IMG/VR virus record: IMGVR_UViG_3300020583_000015
Span: 5,668-69,667 of that record
DNA from: a virus
DNA: 64,000 bases
Strand: one strand, 5' to 3'
Positions 7,886 to 63,470 of this stretch are shown here, in pieces. Within the stretch, counting starts at the first letter, position 1. Each line of letters begins with the position of its first letter. The notes beneath the pieces are model-generated. The model was not told the origin of the DNA. It did no database searches and worked only from the letters and a program-made list of their open reading frames with translations. The position numbers and the translations under genes were made by a program.

Positions 7886-10800
7886 TTAAGGGGTGGTGGA
7901 GCTAGCAGACGAAGGTTGGCGTTTGTTGAACTCCCGTTCAAGAGTCTTCTTCAGGAACGGTAGCCGCTTTTCTATGTCCTCTTCGATTGAAGGAAGCGGG
8001 ACTTGAATTTTCGCCACATTTCTAGCAACTTTTGCCACAGGGTCAAGGATTTTTGCGAGCATAAAATGCCGAGCCTCAGGGGTGAGGTTCGCATCCTGGA
8101 GCGTTTTCGCGATAGTATTGGCAACTGTTTCTCCGTTTGCTCCTTTCTTATTTACCAGTATACCAAAGTTACGGCGGATGGCTTCGTTAGCAGTCGCGTC
8201 GCGCGTTGAGGCTCCGATAAGTTGGTTGATGGAGGCTCCAGGGAGCTCTTCAATCAAGGATTGTAGGCGGCTCTTGCCAATCTCAGGAACACCAGTCACC
8301 AGGCGTTTAAGCGGTTTGTCTGTCGTGACTTCAGGCTTACCGTTGTAGGGGCTGTAACGGATTGGTTCAGCAGAAGGATTAGTGATGGTTCTAACGGGCC
8401 CAGTCAGCGGATCGTTCTTGATATCTCGGTGATAGAGGACCTCAGGATGAGGGCTTACAAGTTGAGCCGTCCGCGAAGGTTGACTCACCGGCGTCCCTCC
8501 AACTGCCGCAGGCGGACCTGTCGGAACGTTTAAACCATTCCCATAAACCGCCTGTACTTGTTGGACTGAGTGAAGAAAGGTGGCAATGTAGCCACCAACT
8601 CCTTTCTTCAACATGTTTTCAAACTTGTCTGGGTCGGAGGAATTTTCAGCACTCACTAGGTCCGCAAGCCCAGTAATAGGCACATCATTTCCAAGCTGCC
8701 TGATGCCCGCGACCATCCTCAGAAAGTCATTGATTGGCATTCCATCAAAGCCCTGACCGGTGGTGTAGCGGTGCATGACTTCACCTAACCCCAGCCACGC
8801 TGCATACGGATGGTATCCACTCATGTCTCGAATGCGGTCGTTACCGTCAGCGTCCTTATCGCCAGTGCGGATTTCCCACCATTTATTGCCAGCTAACGCG
8901 GGGTTCGCTCGGATGTTGTAGGCCATGTTAAGGTTGAAGAAACCCTCGACAGCTTTCCCCAGCTGCCTGTGGGCCATCTTGGTTTCAAGGCCGCCTTCAA
9001 CTCCAGCATATAACTTGTCTCGAAAGTCCTTGTCAAAGAGATCAAAGAACAACGCGGGCGAACGCTCCATATTGTAGCGAAGCGCATTGACCATGAAGCG
9101 AGGGAACGGCACAGTCAGGGCTGTCGCGAACGGCACGTAGTTCTTCATTACAGTAATGATTTTTGCGACAGGGCTTTCACTTGGTAGGTAGCTAAAGGTT
9201 TGTTTAAGCGCGTGCTCTGTTGCCTCAGCAACAGCCATCTTTGAATTTTGAGGAAATTCTCCAGAAGAGGGATCAACCTCAGCCCTTAAATCATCAAGAC
9301 TTTTTCCAATCCCCTTTAGATTTGCCTCAAGACGTGTACGAAAACTCAGATGCCGGGCGAGAATTGTTTGGCTACTGTTGAGAATGTTGCCAAGCCCAAT
9401 TAGGCCATCAAGTTTTTCGATGCCTGTTGAGTTTCTTTTTGGGTTAAGATTCTCAATAACATTCAAACGAGCGTCAAGAGCAAGCGGTCCAGCAACTCCA
9501 TTTAGCATGTCTGTGTTAAGGGGAAGGTTTTTTTGAATTTCTTTAAACACCTCACGCCCAGCTGGACTAAGGGTGTCATACAGCCCATGACCAATCCCTG
9601 CAAGATCTCCAAAATATTCCCCAGCAGGCCTCCCATCGTTGTTGAGGTGGCCTGTGATTGACTCCGCAATCCCTGTGGCCGCTGCGTCAAAGATGTTCAT
9701 TACTTGAACATTCCCGAGATGGCTGATGGTGTTACGGACTGTGTTAGGGAGGGTCATCACCAGCGCTCCCAAACGTGTCCTCTCGACCAGTTTGTTTGAT
9801 GCAAGCGAAGCCTTTTGCCAGAGGCCCATGTAGGGCGGGTCAGCTTTACTCACACGGCGTAGCGCCTGAAGCGAGCGTGCTGCTGCCGGATCTCCTGCAT
9901 TTGCTTGATGAAGGAGTTCTGCTTCCATCAGATCCTTTCCATGAGAAAGCGCGGCCTCGTATCGCCCAGCCTCAGTCGAAGACTCGCGAACTTCATTCGC
10001 TAATAGCTTTGAGGCTTCCTCAACTGTCACTCCATGGCGCTCTGCGAGTTGGGTTGCGATGTTGCCAAGCTCCGGTAGCCCGCCTTGCTCAATCACTCGG
10101 GCAACAAGTTCATTTTGACGAATCCCACCCTCCTTTGCAGCACTTGTTAGTACATCATGAAGAATATTGCTTTGAGCAAGGCGGGCCTGAACCGCTGCAA
10201 TCTGGGGGCTGCTTAGAAGTGTTCGCTGTCGGTTGGCTTCAGCTGTCTCAGGACTAATTGTTTGTTGAATCAGGTCGTGGGCTTCTTGGGTGATTCGGCC
10301 TGCAGCCACCCCTGGGGCAGGGGGCGGCTCACCTAGAGCCGTTGGCTCAACTGGGTTGATTGTTGGTGTGCCTTCGACGTTGCCGGTTACGCCAGCGTTG
10401 AATTCGTTGGTGGCCTTAAGGGAGTTTTGGGCCTGTCGGACTTCACCCATGCTGATTGTTTTGCGGACTGTGGCGTCAGAGGGCCCAAGTCCAGCGGGGT
10501 TTTCTTCTCCAAGAGCCGCATGAACCCCTAAGCCCCCAGGCACGCCAAGGCCCTTTGCGATTTGATCTGCAACACTTAGCTTGATTGGACCGGTGATGAG
10601 GCTTTGGCCTAGGTCTTCAGCGGTAGTAGGGCGATAGGTTGTGTTTCCTTGTTCATCAACGCCGGTTTCAGTTCGACCTGTTAGGGCTTGAACAACTTCT
10701 TTCCCTGGTAACAAATCCATTCCAAGGGCTTTAGCTGCGCCTGTGAGACCTGCGTCCCACTTTTGTTCGGTTGTTGCGTTGGCGAGTGTTAGGCCTTTTT

Positions 10801-11233
10801 TCTTTAGCTCCGCATCAGCGCGAGCTTTGATTGCGTCAGGCGCACCGAATTCAGCTGCGTTTGCGATGCGCGAAGCTCGATAGGCAGCGTTCGGCAGATC
10901 AAAATAAGAGTTCGGATCCCCACGCTTGAACTCATCTGTTGCCCCGGGAATTGGTACAGGACTCAACGCTTGCAGCACATTTAGTCCTGACTGGGTAACT
11001 CCACGAACACCGCCAGCGATTCCTTGTCCAACACCCTTTAGAACTCCACCGGGGTTGGTTAGAGCTTGATAGATTGTGGACGCAGGTCCAGGAGCTTGGG
11101 GTTCGTTGTGTAGTGCCCCGCCTGTAGGTCCGTGTTCTTGATTGATTTGTTTCTTCAGCCACTGTAAGACAGGACTTTCCTCAGGGACTGGGCCGAGCCC
11201 GAAAAACTTTTCGAGGCTGAAGTCATCTGCCAT
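7886..11233 (-). CDS. Large internal virion / DNA ejection protein
   Basis: 1115 aa, Ala/Gly-rich and helical. Position after the nozzle, GNAT and smaller ejection genes matches podoviral gene order; VPFPRF..N motif in the C-terminal half. Confidence 0.7.
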   Translation of the reverse strand: MADDFSLEKFFGLGPVPEESPVLQWLKKQINQEHGPTGGALHNEPQAPGPASTIYQALTNPGGVLKGVGQGIAGGVRGVTQSGLNVLQALSPVPIPGATDEFKRGDPNSYFDLPNAAYRASRIANAAEFGAPDAIKARADAELKKKGLTLANATTEQKWDAGLTGAAKALGMDLLPGKEVVQALTGRTETGVDEQGNTTYRPTTAEDLGQSLITGPIKLSVADQIAKGLGVPGGLGVHAALGEENPAGLGPSDATVRKTISMGEVRQAQNSLKATNEFNAGVTGNVEGTPTINPVEPTALGEPPPAPGVAAGRITQEAHDLIQQTISPETAEANRQRTLLSSPQIAAVQARLAQSNILHDVLTSAAKEGGIRQNELVARVIEQGGLPELGNIATQLAERHGVTVEEASKLLANEVRESSTEAGRYEAALSHGKDLMEAELLHQANAGDPAAARSLQALRRVSKADPPYMGLWQKASLASNKLVERTRLGALVMTLPNTVRNTISHLGNVQVMNIFDAAATGIAESITGHLNNDGRPAGEYFGDLAGIGHGLYDTLSPAGREVFKEIQKNLPLNTDMLNGVAGPLALDARLNVIENLNPKRNSTGIEKLDGLIGLGNILNSSQTILARHLSFRTRLEANLKGIGKSLDDLRAEVDPSSGEFPQNSKMAVAEATEHALKQTFSYLPSESPVAKIITVMKNYVPFATALTVPFPRFMVNALRYNMERSPALFFDLFDKDFRDKLYAGVEGGLETKMAHRQLGKAVEGFFNLNMAYNIRANPALAGNKWWEIRTGDKDADGNDRIRDMSGYHPYAAWLGLGEVMHRYTTGQGFDGMPINDFLRMVAGIRQLGNDVPITGLADLVSAENSSDPDKFENMLKKGVGGYIATFLHSVQQVQAVYGNGLNVPTGPPAAVGGTPVSQPSRTAQLVSPHPEVLYHRDIKNDPLTGPVRTITNPSAEPIRYSPYNGKPEVTTDKPLKRLVTGVPEIGKSRLQSLIEELPGASINQLIGASTRDATANEAIRRNFGILVNKKGANGETVANTIAKTLQDANLTPEARHFMLAKILDPVAKVARNVAKIQVPLPSIEEDIEKRLPFLKKTLEREFNKRQPSSASSTTP

Positions 11234-48243: not shown

Positions 48244-48426
48244 ATGACCAACGGCAAGTTCAACAAAGCGGGACTCATTCGTGAGTTCTTTGGGCTTAGC
48301 GGTACCGAAGCCATCGCCCAAATCAAGGCCCTACCAGAGCCTGACAGATTACAGCTTGGGTCTGCCATCGCTCGGGAGAAGGGCTTGAATCCAGCGGATT
48401 TGGATTTTGAGCTCTGCGCTTACTGA
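48244..48426 (+). CDS. Hypothetical early protein
   Basis: GGAGGT RBS after a hairpin. Confidence 0.7.
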   Translation: MTNGKFNKAGLIREFFGLSGTEAIAQIKALPEPDRLQLGSAIAREKGLNPADLDFELCAY

Positions 48427-48529
48427 ACAGCGCGCTTCGGGGACTCGCTGTACCCCGAACAACAGCCCTAAGCGTTATTAGCTCTTGCAGCCAATGTGGG
48501 AGCTAGGCTAGTTAAATCCTAGCGGGCTG

Positions 48530-53661: not shown

Positions 53662-54945
53662 ATGCAAATCACCACTTTCAAAGAACTTCAGGCGTTGCCG
53701 CCAAACACGCTGGTTAACTCACCGATTTGTGGGAATATTCTGATTGAGTCCCCAGCTCACGCTTTTAAAGACGGCACTAACATTCGCCTGTCTGGTTATC
53801 CTGAACAATCTGTTGGGCGAAGAGGGTATGTGGTTACTCTCAGTAAAACCTACCCATTTGAGGTAATTCAAGACCCAAAACGGACAGAAAAAATCCTGGC
53901 AATCATCTCAAAACTCGGCAGCACCAACCATCTGCCAAGATCCAGTGAATTCACCTCCTACTACAGCGGTTGTGATCCTGAGATTTTTGTGACTGACGCC
54001 GCTGGCGAAGTGATCCCCGCGTGGACATTTTTGCCGTCGAAGGACAAAAAGGCCTTCAGCAGTGCGTTTTGGGACGGCTTCCAAGCGGAGTTCACACCCC
54101 CTCCAAACAGTTGTGTGTCGTTTCTTACAGACAGCGTTCGACAGGGGTTGGTAGTGGTGTTGAATGCGGCTACCAAAACTAACGCCGGTGCGAAGCTCAC
54201 ACCTGCCCCTTGCCTTCCAGTGTCAAGGGAACTCCTTGCGACTGGCGCAGACGAACACATCCAATTTGGCTGTAATCCCTCCTTCAACGCCTACGATAGT
54301 TGTGGGGTTGGGGTTGAGGGGCGGGATCTGGCTTGGCGGTTTGCAGGGTCACACAAACATTTCGGCCTGAAAGGCCTAGGTCTCACTCAAGAAACCGCAA
54401 TACCAATTGTCAAGACCCTTGATAAAATCTATGGAGTGACGACAGTCAGCTTGTTTGGGGATCTTGACAGCCCCATCCGAAGGCTCTACTACGGACGCGC
54501 TGGTGAGTATCGGCTTCCATCCCATGGCCTGGAGTATCGAACTATTAGCAGCATTGATCTTTGTCATCCAGCGATCTACCACCTGAGTTGGGATCTAGCG
54601 CGGATGGCACTTCATCTCTACCTTCATGGGTTGCAAGACCAATGGAGCTGTTCTGACGACGAAGCCCAGGACATCATCAACAACTGTGATACAGACGGCT
54701 CCAGAAAGGTGTTGCAGCGTAACAAACCAATGCTGATGGACTTGCTCAACAACATCTACAACAACGGCTACAGCGGTGGAGACAAGTCTCTCAAAGCCTA
54801 CAACACCATCACAAACAGCCTGAAGGCTTTTGTGGCTGATCCGTTTGATGTCGCTAATAACTGGCATCTTGCAGGTGGTTGGACAAGCCACACTAACAAC
54901 AACGCTTATGACTTTGCACACGCCCCGGCGGAGGTGGTGTGGTAG
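53662..54945 (+). CDS. phiEco32-like COOH-NH2 ligase type 2
   Basis: GCDPEIF, DGFQAEF, FGCNPSFNAY, RFAGSHKHFG, RRLYYGRAGEYR...HGLEYRTIS. Confidence 0.9.
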   Translation: MQITTFKELQALPPNTLVNSPICGNILIESPAHAFKDGTNIRLSGYPEQSVGRRGYVVTLSKTYPFEVIQDPKRTEKILAIISKLGSTNHLPRSSEFTSYYSGCDPEIFVTDAAGEVIPAWTFLPSKDKKAFSSAFWDGFQAEFTPPPNSCVSFLTDSVRQGLVVVLNAATKTNAGAKLTPAPCLPVSRELLATGADEHIQFGCNPSFNAYDSCGVGVEGRDLAWRFAGSHKHFGLKGLGLTQETAIPIVKTLDKIYGVTTVSLFGDLDSPIRRLYYGRAGEYRLPSHGLEYRTISSIDLCHPAIYHLSWDLARMALHLYLHGLQDQWSCSDDEAQDIINNCDTDGSRKVLQRNKPMLMDLLNNIYNNGYSGGDKSLKAYNTITNSLKAFVADPFDVANNWHLAGGWTSHTNNNAYDFAHAPAEVVW

Positions 54946-55084
54946 CGGTTTTGAAGGCCGGTGCGGTCCAGTCGGGTTTTCTGTTAAACCTGGTGGGCCT
55001 GGTGTGTATCACAACGGCAGCCACTGGGCAATTTTCTTTTGGTACAACCCGGAAGTTGAGGAGATGTTTTGTTGAGGTAAAGTA

Positions 55085-55897
55085 ATGCACATTCAACAAC
55101 ATAGTTTTGATGTCACAAAAGTGTTGGCTTTCCTTGGAAAAGGAGAGCTGAAGCTTGGAGTGGAGTTGGAGGTTGAGACCTCCCGGGACAAAGCTCTTGC
55201 TGCCAAAAGCGTGCTTGAGGCGCTCAACCCTAGCGATAGCCCGTTTGTTTGTTTGAAGGCAGACGGCTCGCTCCAAAATGGCTTCGAGATTGTCACCGCC
55301 CCAGCGACACTTCTAGTTCACAAACGGCGATGGCAGCCGTTTTTCGCGGGAGTTGAGGCTTCGACGTTGGATGTCGGCTCTACCACTCGCTGTGGATTGC
55401 ATGTACACTTCGGTCGGAACATCCTTACCAAAACTCAACTCATCAAATACGTCAACTTCATCAACGAGCCAGCACGTAAAAAGTTCATGGTAGCGGTTGC
55501 TGGACGGGAGTCTGTTACTTTTGCGGTGTTGGCAAAGAAAGCCCCCGAGGCGATTGGACATCTTTGTAAGGATGGTGGGTGTCAGATGGTGCCTGATTGG
55601 GCAGGTTCGTCCAGTAAACACTGTAGACTCCAACGGCTTAACCAACGCTATGAGGCGGTGAACCTCACCAACCCCAAAACAATCGAAACGCGGCTGTTTG
55701 CCTCAACCACAAACAAAGAAGCCTTCTTTAGCAGGCTTGAGTTTGTGGTAGCGCTCATTCGGCAGTGTCAGCTTGCAGGCGACGCTGACATCAGTCAGGC
55801 TGCGTTTTGTGAGTATGTGGCGGCACGCAAGGCATACCCGAATTTGTTGACATTCTTGCAGGAGAAGGACTATATCAAATGTGGCTCGAAACCCTAA
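55085..55897 (+). CDS. Putative amidoligase (amidoligase-2 family)
   Basis: GVELEV, DGSL..GFEIVT, CGLHVH, RYEAVN, TIETRLF. Confidence 0.88.
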   Translation: MHIQQHSFDVTKVLAFLGKGELKLGVELEVETSRDKALAAKSVLEALNPSDSPFVCLKADGSLQNGFEIVTAPATLLVHKRRWQPFFAGVEASTLDVGSTTRCGLHVHFGRNILTKTQLIKYVNFINEPARKKFMVAVAGRESVTFAVLAKKAPEAIGHLCKDGGCQMVPDWAGSSSKHCRLQRLNQRYEAVNLTNPKTIETRLFASTTNKEAFFSRLEFVVALIRQCQLAGDADISQAAFCEYVAARKAYPNLLTFLQEKDYIKCGSKP

Positions 55898-56086
55898 TTG
55901 TAGAGCTTCAAAAAATTGAGCAAAAATACGGCAACATTCCTACGACAGTTGTTATGAACCCAAACCACGATCGCACTTGGTTTGAGTTAGAGTCAGTGGG
56001 ATATGAGCCCCGGCTCAAACCCTGCACTAATTCCCATGCAATGATTGTGATTGGGGCAAATAAAAACTATTTTGCTTAAACGACCT

Positions 56087-56286
56087 TGCTCAAACTCAAA
56101 TAAACCCGGCCCCTTATAGCGCAGTGGATGAGCACTCAATCAATGACCAATTGCTCTTGAGTTGCCACACAATTGCCGGCTACATTCAGAACGCTCACCT
56201 CTGTGATGCGACTGTGCCTGAGTGTCATGATGGGTTGGAAAAGCGGCGGGAAAGCACAGAGACTTGACTCTGCCTGAGTTTGAGCA
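56087..56286 (+). ncRNA. Inverted-repeat-closed structured RNA element (candidate)
   Basis: Perfect 12-bp inverted repeat TGCTCAAACTCA / TGAGTTTGAGCA enclosing nested stems CCGGC/GCCGG, GAGCA/TGCTC and CTCTGTG/CACAGAG. Confidence 0.55.
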
Positions 56287-56313
56287 TCCACCTCAAAAGG
56301 AGAACTAAACAGT

Positions 56314-56910
56314 ATGATTAAATACGGATTTGAAGGAGAGTTTTTTGTTGCCTCTCTTGCTGATGGAGTTCTTCAGCCAATTTCGGCTGATATTCCCCAC
56401 GACAGCTGTGGGTATCTTGCTGAGGCCCGAGGTGTGCCAGATAGTGATCCTCTTGTAGCAAGTTATCTTTACAAAGCAGCAGTCGCGAAGCTCGAAGCGG
56501 TTGTTGCGAAGAAGAATCTGAAGCTGATTCAAGAGGCTATTGCTCCGGTTCCTGCTGACACACTCCGAGCCGCGAGACGGCTGTTTGGGAAGGGTCCAAC
56601 AAAATACAATAACATCTATGGGCTCGACTACAAGCCCTCAGACAGAACCCGGCGAGCTGGACTGCATATCCACATCAGCGACGAAACAGTATTCAGATAC
56701 GAAAAGAACAAGGAATTCAAGTACACAAACCAGCTTGATTTTCCTCCAATCATTCAGGCTTTTGACAAGGCCTTTAAGGAAGAAATTAAGTCTACTAAGC
56801 GTTTGCCGGGGTTTTACGAAATGAAGCCTTATGGATTTGAGTATCGATCCCTTCCGGCGACAGCATCGTTGGAAAAGATTGTAGAGGTTCTTAGCAAATT
56901 GGGCCTCTAA
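56314..56910 (+). CDS. Second, compact COOH-NH2 ligase type 2-like protein
   Basis: YGFEGEFF, D..G.LAEAR, RAGLHIHIS, R.PG.YE.KPYGFEYRSLP; AAGGAG RBS. Confidence 0.82.
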   Translation: MIKYGFEGEFFVASLADGVLQPISADIPHDSCGYLAEARGVPDSDPLVASYLYKAAVAKLEAVVAKKNLKLIQEAIAPVPADTLRAARRLFGKGPTKYNNIYGLDYKPSDRTRRAGLHIHISDETVFRYEKNKEFKYTNQLDFPPIIQAFDKAFKEEIKSTKRLPGFYEMKPYGFEYRSLPATASLEKIVEVLSKLGL

Positions 56911-56916
56911 CCGACC

Positions 56917-57179
56917 TTAACCCAAAGCCTACCAATTTCAACCAGAGTGTTGACTTTGTTAAGCCTGACCGCTCCGTGGAGATGTCATCACACAACATAC
57001 GCACATCAGTAGTGGCGATAGGCGGGAGTGTGGTGCCTAGACGCAAGGGCATAGAGATGTGCGCCTTGGAATGTTGTTCTGTCCTTGACTAGATAAGACG
57101 GTCAAAGCCGGGGCCTTCGTGCTCCGTGGACCCTCCCTAAGACAAGGCTTCTCTCGTATGTTAGGCGGCTTTGGGTTAA
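56917..57179 (+). ncRNA. Inverted-repeat-closed structured RNA element (candidate)
   Basis: Perfect 13-bp inverted repeat TTAACCCAAAGCC / GGCTTTGGGTTAA enclosing stems ACAACAT/ATGTTGT, CGCACATC/GATGTGCG and TGACC/GGTCA. Confidence 0.55.
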
Positions 57180-57205
57180 ACAAAACTGACTTTGGAGTGT
57201 GATTT

Positions 57206-57547
57206 ATGCCTGTTGAAAAAAACGGTAACAGTTGGTATTGGCATCTTGACGGAAACTTCATGACCATCCCAACGCATCTACTCAAGACTATTGAGCCAAC
57301 CTCTGTGTGGCAAGAGGTAAAAGCCCGGATGCTTGGGGACAACAAAAACTGCTATCACTGCCTTCGGCCTGGCACAGAAAGCATCACTCAAAAAGTCTAC
57401 CTTGATCGTGCCTATCGAACCGTCACTATGGTGGGGTGTCGAAGGTGCCAAAGAGTGTCTGCGAGAATCGCTAAAACAGCCTCATCCCCTGCGGTTGTGT
57501 TAATGACAACAGAGATAACAGTTCCTGCTGTTGAAGGTGGTTTATGA
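57206..57547 (+). CDS. Hypothetical Zn-binding protein
   Basis: CYHC ... CRRC; GGAG RBS. Confidence 0.6.
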   Translation: MPVEKNGNSWYWHLDGNFMTIPTHLLKTIEPTSVWQEVKARMLGDNKNCYHCLRPGTESITQKVYLDRAYRTVTMVGCRRCQRVSARIAKTASSPAVVLMTTEITVPAVEGGL

Positions 57548-58221
57548 AATTCTACAAACTGAAACATGACATTGACGGGAACCGCCTAAAGAGCCCGCCG
57601 ATGGACGTGGTGTTTTTTACTCTCACCGAGCCTGAACGCCAGGAGCTGATGTGGTTTGGAGAATACACCAACCTTGTTGGGCAGGGAGTAGGAGTGAGGC
57701 TTCGAAAACACCAACACTTCTACCGTCAACTCGGCAACCACCAAGGTTACTACGGCCCAATGCCCCCAACATACGATCACTTCGGCCAGAATGAAGTGTT
57801 TATTTCGTTTTTGAAGGCTCCTTTGGAGCCGGGGCTTAGTCTGTATGCAATAAACACAACCCTTATTGCCGCCTTGGGAGAGCAAGTGATTTCGCCAGAG
57901 GTCTACGTCAGTCAGGTGTTGGGTCGCCTCAAGCCAGCACCATACCAAGGAAAGGTGTTCAAGGATTTTTGGAAGAACTTGTCTTTTGCGGCTATTAACA
58001 TTCCAGGGTTGTATTCCCTAACGCTTGGACCAACGACTATGGATGTCCTTCGCGTGGTCCACACACACCCCTCCATCAAAATGCTGCTGGTTGTTCCGCC
58101 TGACTTAGAACAATTCTTCGCTGAATCTTCAGCACTCTTAAGCAAACTTTCAAACGGGAGTCGCCCTTCAGAACTAAAGCTGTTTTTGAGGAAACTCCCT
58201 CAAGGTCTGGTGAACGCATGA
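57544..58221 (+). CDS. Hypothetical protein inside the ligase cluster
   Basis: ATGA overlaps with both neighbours; no motif recognised. Confidence 0.7.
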   Translation: MKFYKLKHDIDGNRLKSPPMDVVFFTLTEPERQELMWFGEYTNLVGQGVGVRLRKHQHFYRQLGNHQGYYGPMPPTYDHFGQNEVFISFLKAPLEPGLSLYAINTTLIAALGEQVISPEVYVSQVLGRLKPAPYQGKVFKDFWKNLSFAAINIPGLYSLTLGPTTMDVLRVVHTHPSIKMLLVVPPDLEQFFAESSALLSKLSNGSRPSELKLFLRKLPQGLVNA

Positions 58222-59726
58222 GTAAAACCAAACTCAAAAAACGTCACGAATGCGAATACTGCAGTGAACGAGTCGGTAGGCAAACTTTCCACACCGGCCC
58301 AGTCGTTAGCTGCAGTAGTTGTGGCAGGTGCAAACGGTGGTGCACTGGCACAAGCCTAGTTAATGGCCGGAGGTTTGTTAACTCTTGCCATCGGAGGCCT
58401 GGCACGCAGGTAAGCAAACCGCTGGTTCCTACTACCGCCAACAAGCTCCTGAATCCCCTTCCTCGACGCCTTGGGCTAGAAGTCGAGATCGGTGATTGGA
58501 AAACCTTCACTCCCCGCAACCTCAAACAATCCTCTGGCACCATGATGCGGGACGGAAGTGTCCAACCAAGCGCTCATGAGTTGGTGCTTGAGCCGCTGTA
58601 TGGGCGGCAGTATGTGCTGGGGGTGACTGAGCTTGCACAACAACTCCACATCCACCATGCAACCGTCAACCACACTTGTGGATTTCATGTGCATGTGGAC
58701 GCTACAGATCTGGATTGGTTTAGCCTACGACGCCTCACCAAGATCTACCTTGATTTAGAGTCTGAGCTGTACCGGTGTCTGGTAGATCCGTCCCGTCTGG
58801 CTAACAGATTTTGTTGTCCAGTAGACAAAGACTTCCGAAAGGAAGCCGCTGCGCTGTGGACCTTCCACAAACAATCTGAGATTCGCCGAGGCCTATTTTA
58901 CATGGTGTATGGAGTTGATCCAAAGACTCACGGACAATTTACCAAAGAGCAAATCGACAGTCGAGTTAAGCAAGCGATTACTGAGGCTGTCGATTTTGTT
59001 CCATCAACGCCGCGTTTGAGGAATGTCCGGGATCCTATAACAGGAGAATATAGGGCAGTTTTGGTTCAACCGCCTCCTGTCGCGAAGCCCGACCCCAAGG
59101 CCCTTCGAAGGCTCTTTGTTGACCAAGCTAGCAAAGGCCTACGCAACACCTTCAAACAACTAAAGCACAACAAATATGGTGAGATTGGGAACCGTGCCCA
59201 TCTAATCAGGTATTTTGGTCTAAACCTCCACAGTCTGTTCTTTCGGGGCACAGTGGAGTTTCGAATGAAAGAAGGCGTCACAGACCTGGAGTCTTTGATG
59301 TTGTGGCCGCTGTTTTGTGGGTGGCTGGTTGAAGGCGCATCGCGAGCGTCTGACTCGGATGTGTTAAAGTACCCCGCAACGCTTGTTGAGTTTAGTCAGA
59401 GATGGATGCCTCCGGCGATTGCGGAGTGGGTGCTGAAGAAAGTCACATCTGCACCAACTCAAACAGTCACACCACCAAATGAAGGAGCTGTAGGGACTGG
59501 TCCGCTTCCGCATTACACTGATATTGTCTATGGTGCACAACTTCGGAGAGACCTTGAAGGGCGTGCTCAACAAACCGCTGCTGCTAATGCTGCACAGCAG
59601 CAAGCCGCTCAACACTTCGGTGGCCTAAGAAACATGACAGGCGGCCTATTCAGAGAACCTATTTGGGTCACACACCCACTAGCAGAGCCAGCGCCGATTG
59701 CTGACGACCCAACTATCGACTTTTAA
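58218..59726 (+). CDS. Putative amidoligase (amidoligase-2 family) with Cys-rich N-terminus
   Basis: LGLEVEI, DGSV..ELV, CGFHVHVD, R..NRFC, RYFGLN, GTVEFR. Confidence 0.88.
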   Translation: MSKTKLKKRHECEYCSERVGRQTFHTGPVVSCSSCGRCKRWCTGTSLVNGRRFVNSCHRRPGTQVSKPLVPTTANKLLNPLPRRLGLEVEIGDWKTFTPRNLKQSSGTMMRDGSVQPSAHELVLEPLYGRQYVLGVTELAQQLHIHHATVNHTCGFHVHVDATDLDWFSLRRLTKIYLDLESELYRCLVDPSRLANRFCCPVDKDFRKEAAALWTFHKQSEIRRGLFYMVYGVDPKTHGQFTKEQIDSRVKQAITEAVDFVPSTPRLRNVRDPITGEYRAVLVQPPPVAKPDPKALRRLFVDQASKGLRNTFKQLKHNKYGEIGNRAHLIRYFGLNLHSLFFRGTVEFRMKEGVTDLESLMLWPLFCGWLVEGASRASDSDVLKYPATLVEFSQRWMPPAIAEWVLKKVTSAPTQTVTPPNEGAVGTGPLPHYTDIVYGAQLRRDLEGRAQQTAAANAAQQQAAQHFGGLRNMTGGLFREPIWVTHPLAEPAPIADDPTIDF

Positions 59727-59744
59727 AAAGGAGCAACAACACAC

Positions 59745-60665
59745 ATGTGTGGAATACTGGGGTTTGGTTCAGCCAACGAAGACACACGCCTCATAACTCC
59801 ATTTCTTGCGCTTGCAATGCAAGAGCGGGGAAGGGACAGCTGGGGCGCAACAGACGGAAATAAAATCGTCAAGAAGCTCGGCCCAATTGTGGAGTCCTTC
59901 AGTATCAAGGACTTTGAGAACTTTGAATCAGGGATCATCCACACTCGCGCAGCCTCAAAGGGCTCAGTAACTGTGGACAACGCCCACCCATTTAGCTTTC
60001 AAAAGACCGACGGCAGCTTCATCACCGGCGTCCACAACGGCTGCCTCACCAACCACGAAGAACTCAACCGCAAGTATGAGCGTGCGTTTGAAGTCGACAG
60101 CATGCACATCTTCAAACACATCGCGGAAGATCGAGAGCTGAAGGAAATCTACGGTTGGGGCGCAGTCGTGTGGTATCACGACAACCAAATCAACTTCACT
60201 CGCTTCAACATGCAAGACCTGCATGCTGTGAAGCTTGCGTCTGGGCCGATTATGTTTTGTTCGAATCTTGGTCCGCTTAAAACCGCAGCACGTCTCGTGG
60301 GGGCTGAAATCTCCGTCGTCTACGAAATCCACAACGAATACCGGTACTACATCCGAAAGGAGGCTGACGGCTCTGACTGCCTTATGAAGGCAGAACAAAT
60401 GCCGTTCGGGTTTCGTCATGCCCCGTCGACACCCACGACCTTCCAAGCTAACCAAGCACGCCAAGGCCAAAGTGGGCCGGTTGTTTATCCGGGGTGGGGT
60501 GCGAACTGCGGCAGCAGTCTCGACGACATTGGACGCAACAAGCGCACCAAAGGCGAGTGTGTTCGGTGCAACACGCAAATCAACCGGAAGAAGAAAACGC
60601 TCTGTGACAAATGTGTCGAGGCGATCAGGGCGCTCCTGACGGGACAGTGTGAAATCTATGAATAA
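59745..60665 (+). CDS. Class II (Ntn) glutamine amidotransferase
   Basis: N-terminal MCGILG, RGRDSWG, HTRAAS.G, NAHPF, HNG, VDS; C-terminal CxxC..CxxC. Confidence 0.93.
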   Translation: MCGILGFGSANEDTRLITPFLALAMQERGRDSWGATDGNKIVKKLGPIVESFSIKDFENFESGIIHTRAASKGSVTVDNAHPFSFQKTDGSFITGVHNGCLTNHEELNRKYERAFEVDSMHIFKHIAEDRELKEIYGWGAVVWYHDNQINFTRFNMQDLHAVKLASGPIMFCSNLGPLKTAARLVGAEISVVYEIHNEYRYYIRKEADGSDCLMKAEQMPFGFRHAPSTPTTFQANQARQGQSGPVVYPGWGANCGSSLDDIGRNKRTKGECVRCNTQINRKKKTLCDKCVEAIRALLTGQCEIYE

Positions 60666-61094: not shown

Positions 61095-61390
61095 CAAATC
61101 TAATAGAAGTTGTTTGGGACCTTATACCTTTGGGAGTCGGGTGCTTGATTATTCTTCTTTTGGTTATGGGCGCGTGTGGGCTTGTTGGTCTGGGGTGGCT
61201 TTTCTTTAAGGCAATCCTAAAAGGAGATTGGTTCGACCGTTAAAATGAAACAAACCACTGAATTCATTAGCGACTTTTTGCTTGTTGGGTTTGGGCTGTC
61301 GCTGTGCGTGTTCGTGACTGCTGTACTGGCTTGTGGGATCTATGGCTTGTCTAAGTTAGTGAAAAGTGCCTTGAAAGGAGATTTGTTGTG

Positions 61391-62606: not shown

Positions 62607-62840
62607 CAGTAGGAGAACCCCCAAACGTATGATTAGAATCAACATCAGCGAAGACCACCTCAAAGAAGTCATTGATGGGTTGGTAATTGCTGCTACAACA
62701 CGCTTCGAGTATGCTGACCGTTCTGACGTCAGCGCGACTGCAAAAGAACGCTACCGAAAGGTTGGCGATAGCTTCCTAGATCGAGCAAAGGATCTTCGGG
62801 GAGCGCTTGAAGAAGGTCTGTAAGTTAGGTTCTTTGCGCA

Positions 62841-62929
62841 ACACCCTAATTTTTGTTGAGGTCCCTAGGGTGTGTACCTAATGCACACCCTAATGGAACA
62901 CCCTATGAACATCAATAAACACCCTAATG
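62841..62929. repeat. Cluster 2 of ACACCCTAAT(G) repeats
   Basis: Copies at 62841, 62885, 62898 (variant) and 62919 plus the inverted TCCCTAGGGTGT at 62862-62873. Confidence 0.9.
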
Positions 62930-62963
62930 AAAGTTAACTTACATAGAGTCTAAGAGGTTTCTG

Positions 62964-63470
62964 ATGAGCACCTACATCACACTTCGCGAAACAACGCTGA
63001 CACAGCTTGGCCCGAAGTGTGTACAGTGTGGCTACAACAGCGATCTTCGGGCACTAGACATCGTGAACTTTGCAGGACGTGGTTCAGACCTAAAGCGAAG
63101 CATGGACAGAGGCTCCTACCTGATGCGAGTCCTTCGGGAGCATGCATCTGGCTCTGCCGAGTGGGGTGTGTTGTGTGCGAATTGCAACAGGATTCGGATG
63201 CGCCAAAACCGCCAGAAGGTAGCTGACGAACGCCCTCCTAAGCCTGGGCCTTGCGTGGTGTGGGCCCCTGATCTTGAGGAAGCAGACGTGTTTGTGCCTC
63301 ACAAATGGCTTAAAGATCGGGCTGCAGGGCGTGAAATTTTTGTGCTGTGGCGTGGAAATGTTTATGACTATCTCCTCAAAGCCTTGGTTGCAGCGTGCTG
63401 GAAGGACTTCGCTGCTGGACGAGGTATTAGTTTGGAAGAGCCAACAGAACCGGTTACTGACTATGAGTGA
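62964..63470 (+). CDS. HNH-fold Zn-binding protein (catalytic His not evident)
   Basis: LGPKCVQCGY..D.RALD ... VLCANCNR. Confidence 0.7.
   Translation: MSTYITLRETTLTQLGPKCVQCGYNSDLRALDIVNFAGRGSDLKRSMDRGSYLMRVLREHASGSAEWGVLCANCNRIRMRQNRQKVADERPPKPGPCVVWAPDLEEADVFVPHKWLKDRAAGREIFVLWRGNVYDYLLKALVAACWKDFAAGRGISLEEPTEPVTDYE

Follow-up and report, generated by a model that had tools for sequence, protein, structure and literature searches.

The 64-kb window analysed here, by which we mean the whole stretch of DNA under study, comprises bases 5668-69667 of a 69,667-bp IMG/VR virus record that is rated 100% complete. The G+C content of the genome is ~51%, and its termini carry a common 145-bp repeat with 99.3% identity between the copies. 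Phage genes for a DNA polymerase, a primase, a portal and a major head protein were identified, all of them distant from known phage families, and no DNA-level match to 55000-58300 was found by blastn against 50,697 phage records. The two intergenic spacers E1 and E2 sit in a plus-strand gene block, an amidoligase gene cluster, on both sides of a small ligase-like gene. The features of the locus are as follows.

55879 to 56079, plus strand: g66, the upstream gene, 66 aa; its TAA stop opens the first motif copy
56077 to 56087, plus strand: motif copy 1, TAAACGACCTT, the TAA stop codon with CGACCTT
56080 to 56313: E1 spacer, upstream of g198
56087 to 56098, plus strand: E1 5' arm, TGCTCAAACTCA, 12/12 complementary
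56099 to 56274, plus strand: E1 interior, 176 nt, with direct repeats at 56210-56223 and 56266-56279
56275 to 56286, plus strand: E1 3' arm, TGAGTTTGAGCA, pairing with the E1 5' arm
56314 to 56910, plus strand: g198, a small COOH-NH2-ligase-like protein between E1 and E2, 198 aa
56908 to 56918, plus strand: motif copy 2, TAACCGACCTT, a TAA stop with CGACCTT
56911 to 57205: E2 spacer, downstream of g198
56917 to 56929, plus strand: E2 5' arm, TTAACCCAAAGCC, 13/13 complementary
56930 to 57166, plus strand: E2 interior, 237 nt, with GCTCCGTGGA at 56971 and 57121
57167 to 57179, plus strand: E2 3' arm, GGCTTTGGGTTAA, pairing with the E2 5' arm
57206 to 57547, plus strand: g113, the downstream gene, 113 aa, with CxxC...CxxC
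same plus-strand block: a COOH-NH2 ligase, 427 aa, PF14395
same plus-strand block: two Amidoligase_2 proteins, 270 and 502 aa
same plus-strand block: a class-II glutamine amidotransferase, 306 aa
same plus-strand block: several orphan genes

Neither g66 nor g113 matched a family in Pfam or PHROG. Both are called proteins in a collection of 15 billion proteins, where g66 forms a singleton cluster. A first-pass annotation of the sequence had described each spacer as opening with CGACCTT directly after a TAA stop, running into a perfect inverted repeat of 12 or 13 bp, carrying an internal direct repeat and closing shortly before the next ribosome-binding site, and all four statements were borne out. 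CGACCTT starts at 56081 and 56912, and the arms pair perfectly (56087-56098 with 56275-56286, and 56917-56929 with 57167-57179). The direct repeats are GACT(G/C)TGCCTGAGT in E1 (56210 and 56266, 56 nt apart, 13/14 identical) and GCTCCGTGGA in E2 (150 nt apart, 10/10 identical). The 3' arms end 10 nt before the Shine-Dalgarno sequence AAGGAG (56297-56302) of g198 and 14 nt before the GGAG (57194-57197) of g113, and neither Shine-Dalgarno sequence is part of a helix or sequestered by one. All pairs in the two closing helices are Watson-Crick, with no G-U pairs. The layout is near-identical in E1 and E2, running from the stop through 6-7 nt to the first arm, and from the second arm through 26-27 nt to the ATG; the prefix TAAnCGACCTT, which contains the upstream stop codon, is common to both. 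The genome had also been described as otherwise packed with overlapping genes. We found that its genes mostly abut, but other gaps of 160-290 nt are present, for example at 61095-61387 and 48369-48529.

The closing helices were then compared with chance expectation. The window contains 10 perfect inverted repeats of 12-mer length within 500 nt; 30 Markov shuffles gave 2.1 on average and 6 at most. In 1,098,418 bases of unrelated viral loci, originally collected for another purpose and used here as an empirical background, perfect repeats with arms of 12 bp or more and a spacing of 100-420 nt number 33 (1.92 per 64 kb); the span was mostly non-coding in 1/33, corresponding to 0.058 per 64 kb. 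The window holds four repeats of at least 12 bp at this spacing. Two of them are coding, in agreement with the background prediction, and the other two are the adjacent spacers E1 and E2. By a crude measure of the share of the span in long open frames, E1 scores 0.01 and qualifies as non-coding; E2 scores 0.54 by the same crude measure, not below 0.2, owing to an overlapping minus-strand frame without stops (57037-57345). Exact copies of the motif are found twice, both at the elements, against ~0.12 expected in 128 kb over both strands by our own arithmetic, and when up to one mismatch is allowed there is no enrichment (4 matches versus 2.68 expected). The closing helices are beyond chance, and such repeats around non-coding DNA are rare.

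The closing helices are also the only standout feature of the two elements. When the arms were removed, the interiors folded no better than dinucleotide shuffles, with z-scores of -0.78 (plus strand) and +0.21 (minus strand) for E1 and of +0.68 (plus) and -1.09 (minus) for E2. The first-pass annotation had proposed that about 175 and 237 nt of nested stems are enclosed; the spacing is as described (176 and 237 nt), but the stems are no more stable than those of shuffled sequence. With the arms included, the z-scores were -2.56 (plus) and -1.07 (minus) for E1, and -1.67 (plus) and -3.11 (minus) for E2, so that the whole of E2 folds better on the minus strand. These scores differ in the strand they favour, and thermodynamics therefore leaves the strand unsettled. 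In a sense transcript of ~550 nt (541 nt of context for E1), both helices are predicted to form with pair probabilities of 0.78-1.0; in the antisense context the E2 helix is out-competed, with a pair probability of 0.05-0.06. By this prediction only, the transcript would carry a double-stranded helix of the sort found at RNase III processing sites.

E1 and E2 had been called similarly built. Their ends are indeed alike, but no similarity in sequence or in covariance models extends beyond the motif. The best local alignment between them consists of the motif alone, with a score of 17 versus a shuffle mean of 17.2, and the candidate explanation that they are paralogues was rejected on that score.

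We also examined whether the spacers could be occupied by ordinary small protein-coding genes, given that open reading frames of 34-53 codons are present on both strands (56124-56267 and 56976-57092 on the plus strand, 56891-57052 on the minus strand). GTG or TTG serves as the start codon in most of these frames. None is preceded at normal spacing by a Shine-Dalgarno sequence, whereas the flanking genes have one. A tblastx search with E1 and E2 as queries found nothing better than an E-value of 0.52 in 41 related loci. Six frames were looked up among the called proteins of the 15-billion-protein collection and none was there (0/6); the look-up was exact and may have missed frames with GTG or TTG starts if these were translated as V or L. 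On this evidence, small genes in the spacers are extremely unlikely.

Next, relatives and known RNA families were sought. An Rfam 15 scan, which the first-pass annotation had suggested as a check, matched no family at gathering thresholds in the whole window; its scope included riboswitches, ribozymes, 6S, tmRNA, RNase P, Y-RNA-like RNAs, group I and II introns and phage RNAs. At E-values up to 10, only chance matches of snoRNA, lncRNA or viral type were obtained, at 10-15 bits. ARAGORN found no tRNA or tmRNA gene in the 64 kb, and the AGCGCAGTGGA of E1, which resembles a D-loop, lacks a partnering T-arm. A group I intron with the ligase as its intron ORF was considered and rejected, as Rfam gave no match and the ORFs on both sides are whole genes. 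For a type III antitoxin or a mimic of CRISPR repeats, tandem or regular repeats of ~30-36 nt were looked for in the elements and were absent; the only repeats are the pairs of 14 nt and 10 nt described above.

Searches for homologues of the elements were equally negative. Comparison of E1 and E2 with 41 loci carrying ligase homologues by blastn and nhmmer gave nothing below an E-value of 1, and BLAST of 56080-57205 against five related IMG/VR records gave short chance matches only. Single-sequence covariance models of E1 (R1) and E2 (R2) returned only self-matches in the window and the 41 loci and nothing in the five IMG/VR records, and neither model found the other element. The arm-pair patterns of both elements had no match in IMG/VR, and that of E2 had none in 185,579 species genomes (GTDB). 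The E1 arm pair matched two MAG contigs in GTDB (L163 and L164), where it lies inside homologous conserved genes of ~460 aa, and these matches were dismissed as one chance event. Also discarded were the two matches to the GCTCCGTGGA pair pattern, which are tandem coding repeats, and the matches to the TGCCTGAGT pair pattern, which occurred at more than 118 loci and were all noise. Both elements are single copy in their own genome. Thus no homologue was found by any of the search methods, and neither conservation nor covariation of the elements was seen.

We further searched the locus for regulatory signals and targets. A scan of both strands of 55700-57500 gave no sigma-70-like promoter, which counts as weak evidence, and there was no terminator-like site inside E1 or E2. 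A common intergenic promoter motif was rejected, in that no 10-mer shared among 18 intergenic regions covers both elements. Complementarity of E1 and E2 to the rest of the phage genome was not in excess, with 7 and 8 complementary 11-mers versus ~8.8 expected and 0 and 1 complementary 12-mers versus ~2.2 expected, and antisense targets within the phage were rejected on these counts.

The gene between the spacers was studied through its homologues. g198 alone had no direct match in Pfam or PHROG. It has 178 homologues, and PF14395 was matched by 3/44 aligned family members; an hhalign comparison of the family with the phage's own 427-aa COOH-NH2 ligase gave a probability of 90.7% and an E-value of 1.3e-6. 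Because of these homologues, Pfam matches and profile alignment, the label "ligase gene" is fair, and by sequence comparison the g198 family is a distant relative of COOH-NH2 ligases. Its nearest homologues (P0002 and P0003), 57-58% identical, lie on contigs of 1.6-1.7 kb. The comparison set described here consists of 41 loci with homologues at 30-49% identity, and gaps were counted only next to a neighbouring ORF of 60 aa or more. Upstream of the ligase homologue the gap was at most 60 nt in 22/29 loci and at least 150 nt in 5/29, and downstream it was at least 150 nt in 3/28. The larger gaps contain small ORFs, and none of them in these related loci is bracketed by an inverted repeat of at least 9 bp. 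Around the ligase the order of genes varies, and in nearly all related loci its neighbours are different ones. IMG/VR single-protein locus searches with the ligase and with the 502-aa and 270-aa amidoligases found none. The earlier proposal that the RNA elements are linked to the ligase was not supported, in that the homologues mostly abut their neighbours and the larger gaps are without bracketing inverted repeats. As judged from these sequences, E1 and E2 are no general companion of g198-type ligases.

One possibility is that the spacers are recombination scars. The 11-bp direct repeats TAA(A/C)CGACCTT, 831 bp apart, would mark a microhomology insertion of a unit made up of E1 and the ligase gene, and the spacers would be neutral leftovers, like PeSL cassettes. 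The exact motif indeed occurs at these two sites only and flanks the ligase unit, the ligase moves as a module among differing neighbours, and the interiors show neither structure nor conservation. PeSL-mediated gene shuffling is documented (PMC2839356). However, PeSLs combine a strong sigma-70 promoter with a local terminator hairpin and occur in many copies, neither feature being found here, and the scars leave unexplained two independent, alike-placed, perfect long-range helices as well as the RNA-library contig described below. We consider an origin as scars very unlikely.

A second possibility is that E1 and E2 are purely cis elements of the mRNA. The helix would bring the stop and the next ribosome-binding site within ~35 nt of each other and so allow translational coupling, or it would create a site of processing or stability by which the ligase mRNA becomes independent of its neighbours, with any accumulating fragment as a by-product that has no role itself. 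The geometry of stop and start is the same in both elements, the helices are predicted near probability 1 in the sense transcript, the interiors resemble unselected sequence, and no excess complementarity hints at an antisense target, all of which fits this explanation. It does not explain why spacers of ~180-240 nt are retained where genes mostly abut, and it sits poorly with related loci that are without such spacers and with Shine-Dalgarno sequences that stand free of the helices. A function in cis only is, in our judgement, unlikely.

Evidence from RNA was sought in public sequencing data. Two public runs contain sequence of this DNA. One, the DNA run X1, is probably where the record came from; the other, X2, is a soil metatranscriptome of a different study, in which 17% of the sampled words are present. 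Its contigs were compared over 55800-57600, with the following result.

56935 to 57173, strand unspecified: X2 contig, 239 nt, depth 11.9, 0 mismatches, no joints or loose ends
57232 to 57382: X2 contig, 151 nt, in g113, depth 2

The 239-nt contig lies wholly within E2, starting 6 nt inside the 5' arm and ending 7 nt into the 3' arm. No X2 contig covered E1 or the ligase gene, which in such a small run was not taken as absence. The contigs come from one run, carry neither RNA ends nor strand, give one depth figure each and may include DNA carry-over; read in this way, the 239-nt contig fits a discrete, helix-bounded E2 RNA that is more abundant than the adjacent mRNA and whose ends were lost in assembly. 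With that start, the contig does not demonstrate that the helix is retained. The contig-bounded piece of E2 is not detectably structured (z +1.04 on the plus strand, -1.24 on the minus strand). A circular RNA was considered and rejected, since the X2 contig has no joint. The first-pass annotation had put forward small RNAs excised at the closing stem; this idea gains from helices that are real and non-random and from an E2 contig that fits it, but loses from interiors that are unstructured and from the lack of homologues.

The depth figures also bear on the explanation that E1 and E2 act at the level of DNA, either as invertible promoter segments whose repeats are used by a host recombinase or as relics of small transposable insertions. 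G-U-free inverted repeats of 12-13 bp around intergenic segments of 176 and 237 bp directly upstream of genes would suit such elements, as would unstructured interiors, and a contig that ends near the repeats could reflect a graph branch at an invertible segment. On the other hand, serine and tyrosine recombinases (PF00239 and PF00589) and reverse transcriptase (PF00078) are absent from the complete 69.7-kb phage genome, although a host enzyme is conceivable, and the lack of a sigma-70-like promoter in 55700-57500 counts weakly in the same direction. In the X1 DNA assembly, whose contigs drop rare variants, both elements are spanned in one orientation. The arm pairs recur nowhere else in IMG/VR, nor in GTDB for E2, and the two GTDB matches of E1 are coding. 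No clean target-site duplication was seen: E1 has none, and the outer TTAA of each E2 arm could be read as a 4-bp duplication but belongs to the palindrome. E1 and E2 are mutually unrelated. A depth of 11.9 inside the element against 2 in the next gene is unlike the effect of inversion alone. We regard DNA-level elements as distinctly unlikely.

Based on these results, the reading that we prefer is that E1 and E2 are stem-closed RNA modules in a polycistronic transcript of the sense strand, and that at least one of them, E2, builds up as an RNA species of its own. We hold it tentatively, with a rough probability of 0.4. According to this reading, both elements would be carried as non-coding modules in the sense (plus) transcript of the amidoligase cluster. 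The sequence just after each stop would pair with the sequence 26-27 nt before the next start to form a helix of 12-13 bp, and ~180-240 nt would be looped out. The helix may bound a discrete RNA of ~200 nt in the case of E1 and of 240-263 nt in the case of E2, serving either as a processing site for a double-strand-specific (RNase III-type) enzyme or as a shield of paired ends against exonucleases, and the E2 RNA, at least, would outlast the flanking mRNA. In this picture the choice of the sense strand, the cutting of the RNA out of a longer transcript, the enzyme involved and any action in trans are inferred.

The RNA reading draws support from the position of the helices at the spacer edges, the common layout, the rarity of such repeats, the pairing predicted in the sense context and the E2 contig. 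It is also supported by spacer ORFs that are without a Shine-Dalgarno sequence and by the precedent of DicF, to which we return below. Against it stand interiors that look like shuffles, the absence of homologues and the better fold of E2 on the minus strand. In addition, perfect, G-U-free helices fit a DNA-level or a recent origin equally well, and the RNA evidence consists of one run of contigs without ends or strand. In a bolder version, E2 would be the first example of a class of phage small RNA not described before, and E1, being built alike, would belong to it too. Such RNAs, ~200-260 nt long, would be released by their helix from an early polycistronic transcript, reach levels well above the neighbouring mRNAs in a natural soil infection and act in trans on a host or phage factor; we think this doubtful.

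To our knowledge, very few non-coding RNAs are known for phages of uncultured hosts. An abundant environmental RNA cut from an operon would, if true, be a candidate for host takeover or counter-defence, and helix-bracketed spacers could serve as a guide to such RNAs in singleton genomes, which are out of reach of covariation methods. Should the elements act at the level of DNA or in cis only, they would be an ordinary curiosity of one phage. Because there are no relatives and the RNA evidence is at contig level from one run, E1 and E2 are a reasonable lead rather than a discovery.

Finally, we compared the two elements with known systems. In rRNA precursor stems and at the RNase III sites of T7 early mRNA, the latter intercistronic, the flanks pair into a helix that marks the site of release. 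These helices are ~20 bp or longer, or are local hairpins, whereas E1 and E2 have helices of 12-13 bp that enclose 176-237 nt with no detectable structure. Classical RNase III substrates span about two helical turns, and helices of 12-13 bp are shorter than that. Invertons such as fimS are intergenic segments of a few hundred bp with short perfect inverted repeats upstream of a gene. E1 and E2 are likewise intergenic, flanked by inverted repeats and next to a gene, but differ in that the phage has no recombinase, no promoter-like site was found and the DNA assembly shows one orientation. The msr-msd RNA of retrons is ~200 nt long, and its ends pair through the inverted repeats a1 and a2. E1 and E2 resemble it in their perfect terminal repeats of 12 and 13 bp, while the phage lacks a reverse transcriptase and the gene downstream of E1 is ligase-like. 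MITEs share with the elements the presence of terminal inverted repeats, but copies with the same ends are found neither in the phage's own genome nor in IMG/VR, nor in GTDB for E2.

Two further systems lie closer to phage gene organization. PeSL cassettes of T4-type phages consist of a sigma-70 promoter and a local terminator stem-loop present in many copies (PMC2839356). The likeness is that short repeated intergenic signals flank accessory genes in a gene-shuffling phage region (PMC2839356; PMC4122927); the difference is that here two copies of an 11-nt motif are combined with long-range helices, with no promoter or terminator match. DicF is an RNA of ~190 nt produced in an RNase III-dependent manner from a prophage polycistronic mRNA (bioRxiv 10.1101/2023.04.14.536235). 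As described there, it resembles E1 and E2 in being a non-coding RNA between protein genes of a phage-derived operon without a promoter of its own. It differs in that the elements match it neither in sequence nor in Rfam, and in that the ends of DicF are not joined by a long-range helix. By analogy, DicF provides a precedent for an operon-processed RNA, with the processing of E1 and E2 being putative. If real, E1 and E2 would be new phage non-coding RNAs that stand outside every curated family, yet belong to a familiar kind, the small RNAs processed from operons.

The two stem-closed spacers E1 and E2, together with the mini-ligase gene between them, lie in a dense amidoligase gene cluster (window 53662-60665), with the following members:

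COOH-NH2 ligase, 427 aa
Mini-ligase, 198 aa
Two Amidoligase_2 proteins, 270 and 502 aa
Class-II glutamine amidotransferase, 306 aa

No family was matched by either of the genes flanking the elements, and each of the two formed a singleton cluster at 90% identity in a collection of 15 billion proteins:

55879-56079, flanking gene, 66 aa
57206-57547, flanking gene, 113 aa, CxxC...CxxC

We also considered other gaps in the window:

48369-48529, gap of 161 nt separating divergent minus- and plus-strand gene blocks
61095-61387, spacer of 293 nt without long ORFs, same gene block as the amidoligase cluster
62824-63016, spacer of 193 nt without long ORFs, same gene block

The 161-nt gap was more stable than its shuffles on both strands (fold z, stability relative to shuffled sequence, -2.67 and -1.96), and it is likely a control region. 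A bracketing inverted repeat was absent from both the 293-nt and the 193-nt spacer, for which fold z was -0.59 and -2.13, respectively.

The longest perfect inverted repeat of its type in the window was found within an ORF:

7886-11233, minus strand, 1115-aa ORF
10078-10092 and 10172-10186, perfect 15-bp inverted repeat within this ORF, 79 nt between arms

This repeat and the start of E1 have in common the 10-mer CCTTGCTCAA, which occurs three times in the window (0.26 expected).

Moreover, we identified the 12-nt inverted-repeat pair of E1, with similar spacing, in a conserved gene present in two MAGs, one of Bacteroidales and one of Pseudomonadales:

L163:2798-4180, minus strand, and L164:5870-7246, plus strand, conserved gene of ~460 aa

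These matches, which lie inside the coding sequence, were judged coincidental.

At the genome ends, the first and last 145 bases of the record share 99.3% identity:

G000:C1:1-145 and 69523-69667 (numbering of the whole record), terminal match

Either the genome carries a direct repeat at its termini, or it is circular or permuted and its assembled ends overlap.
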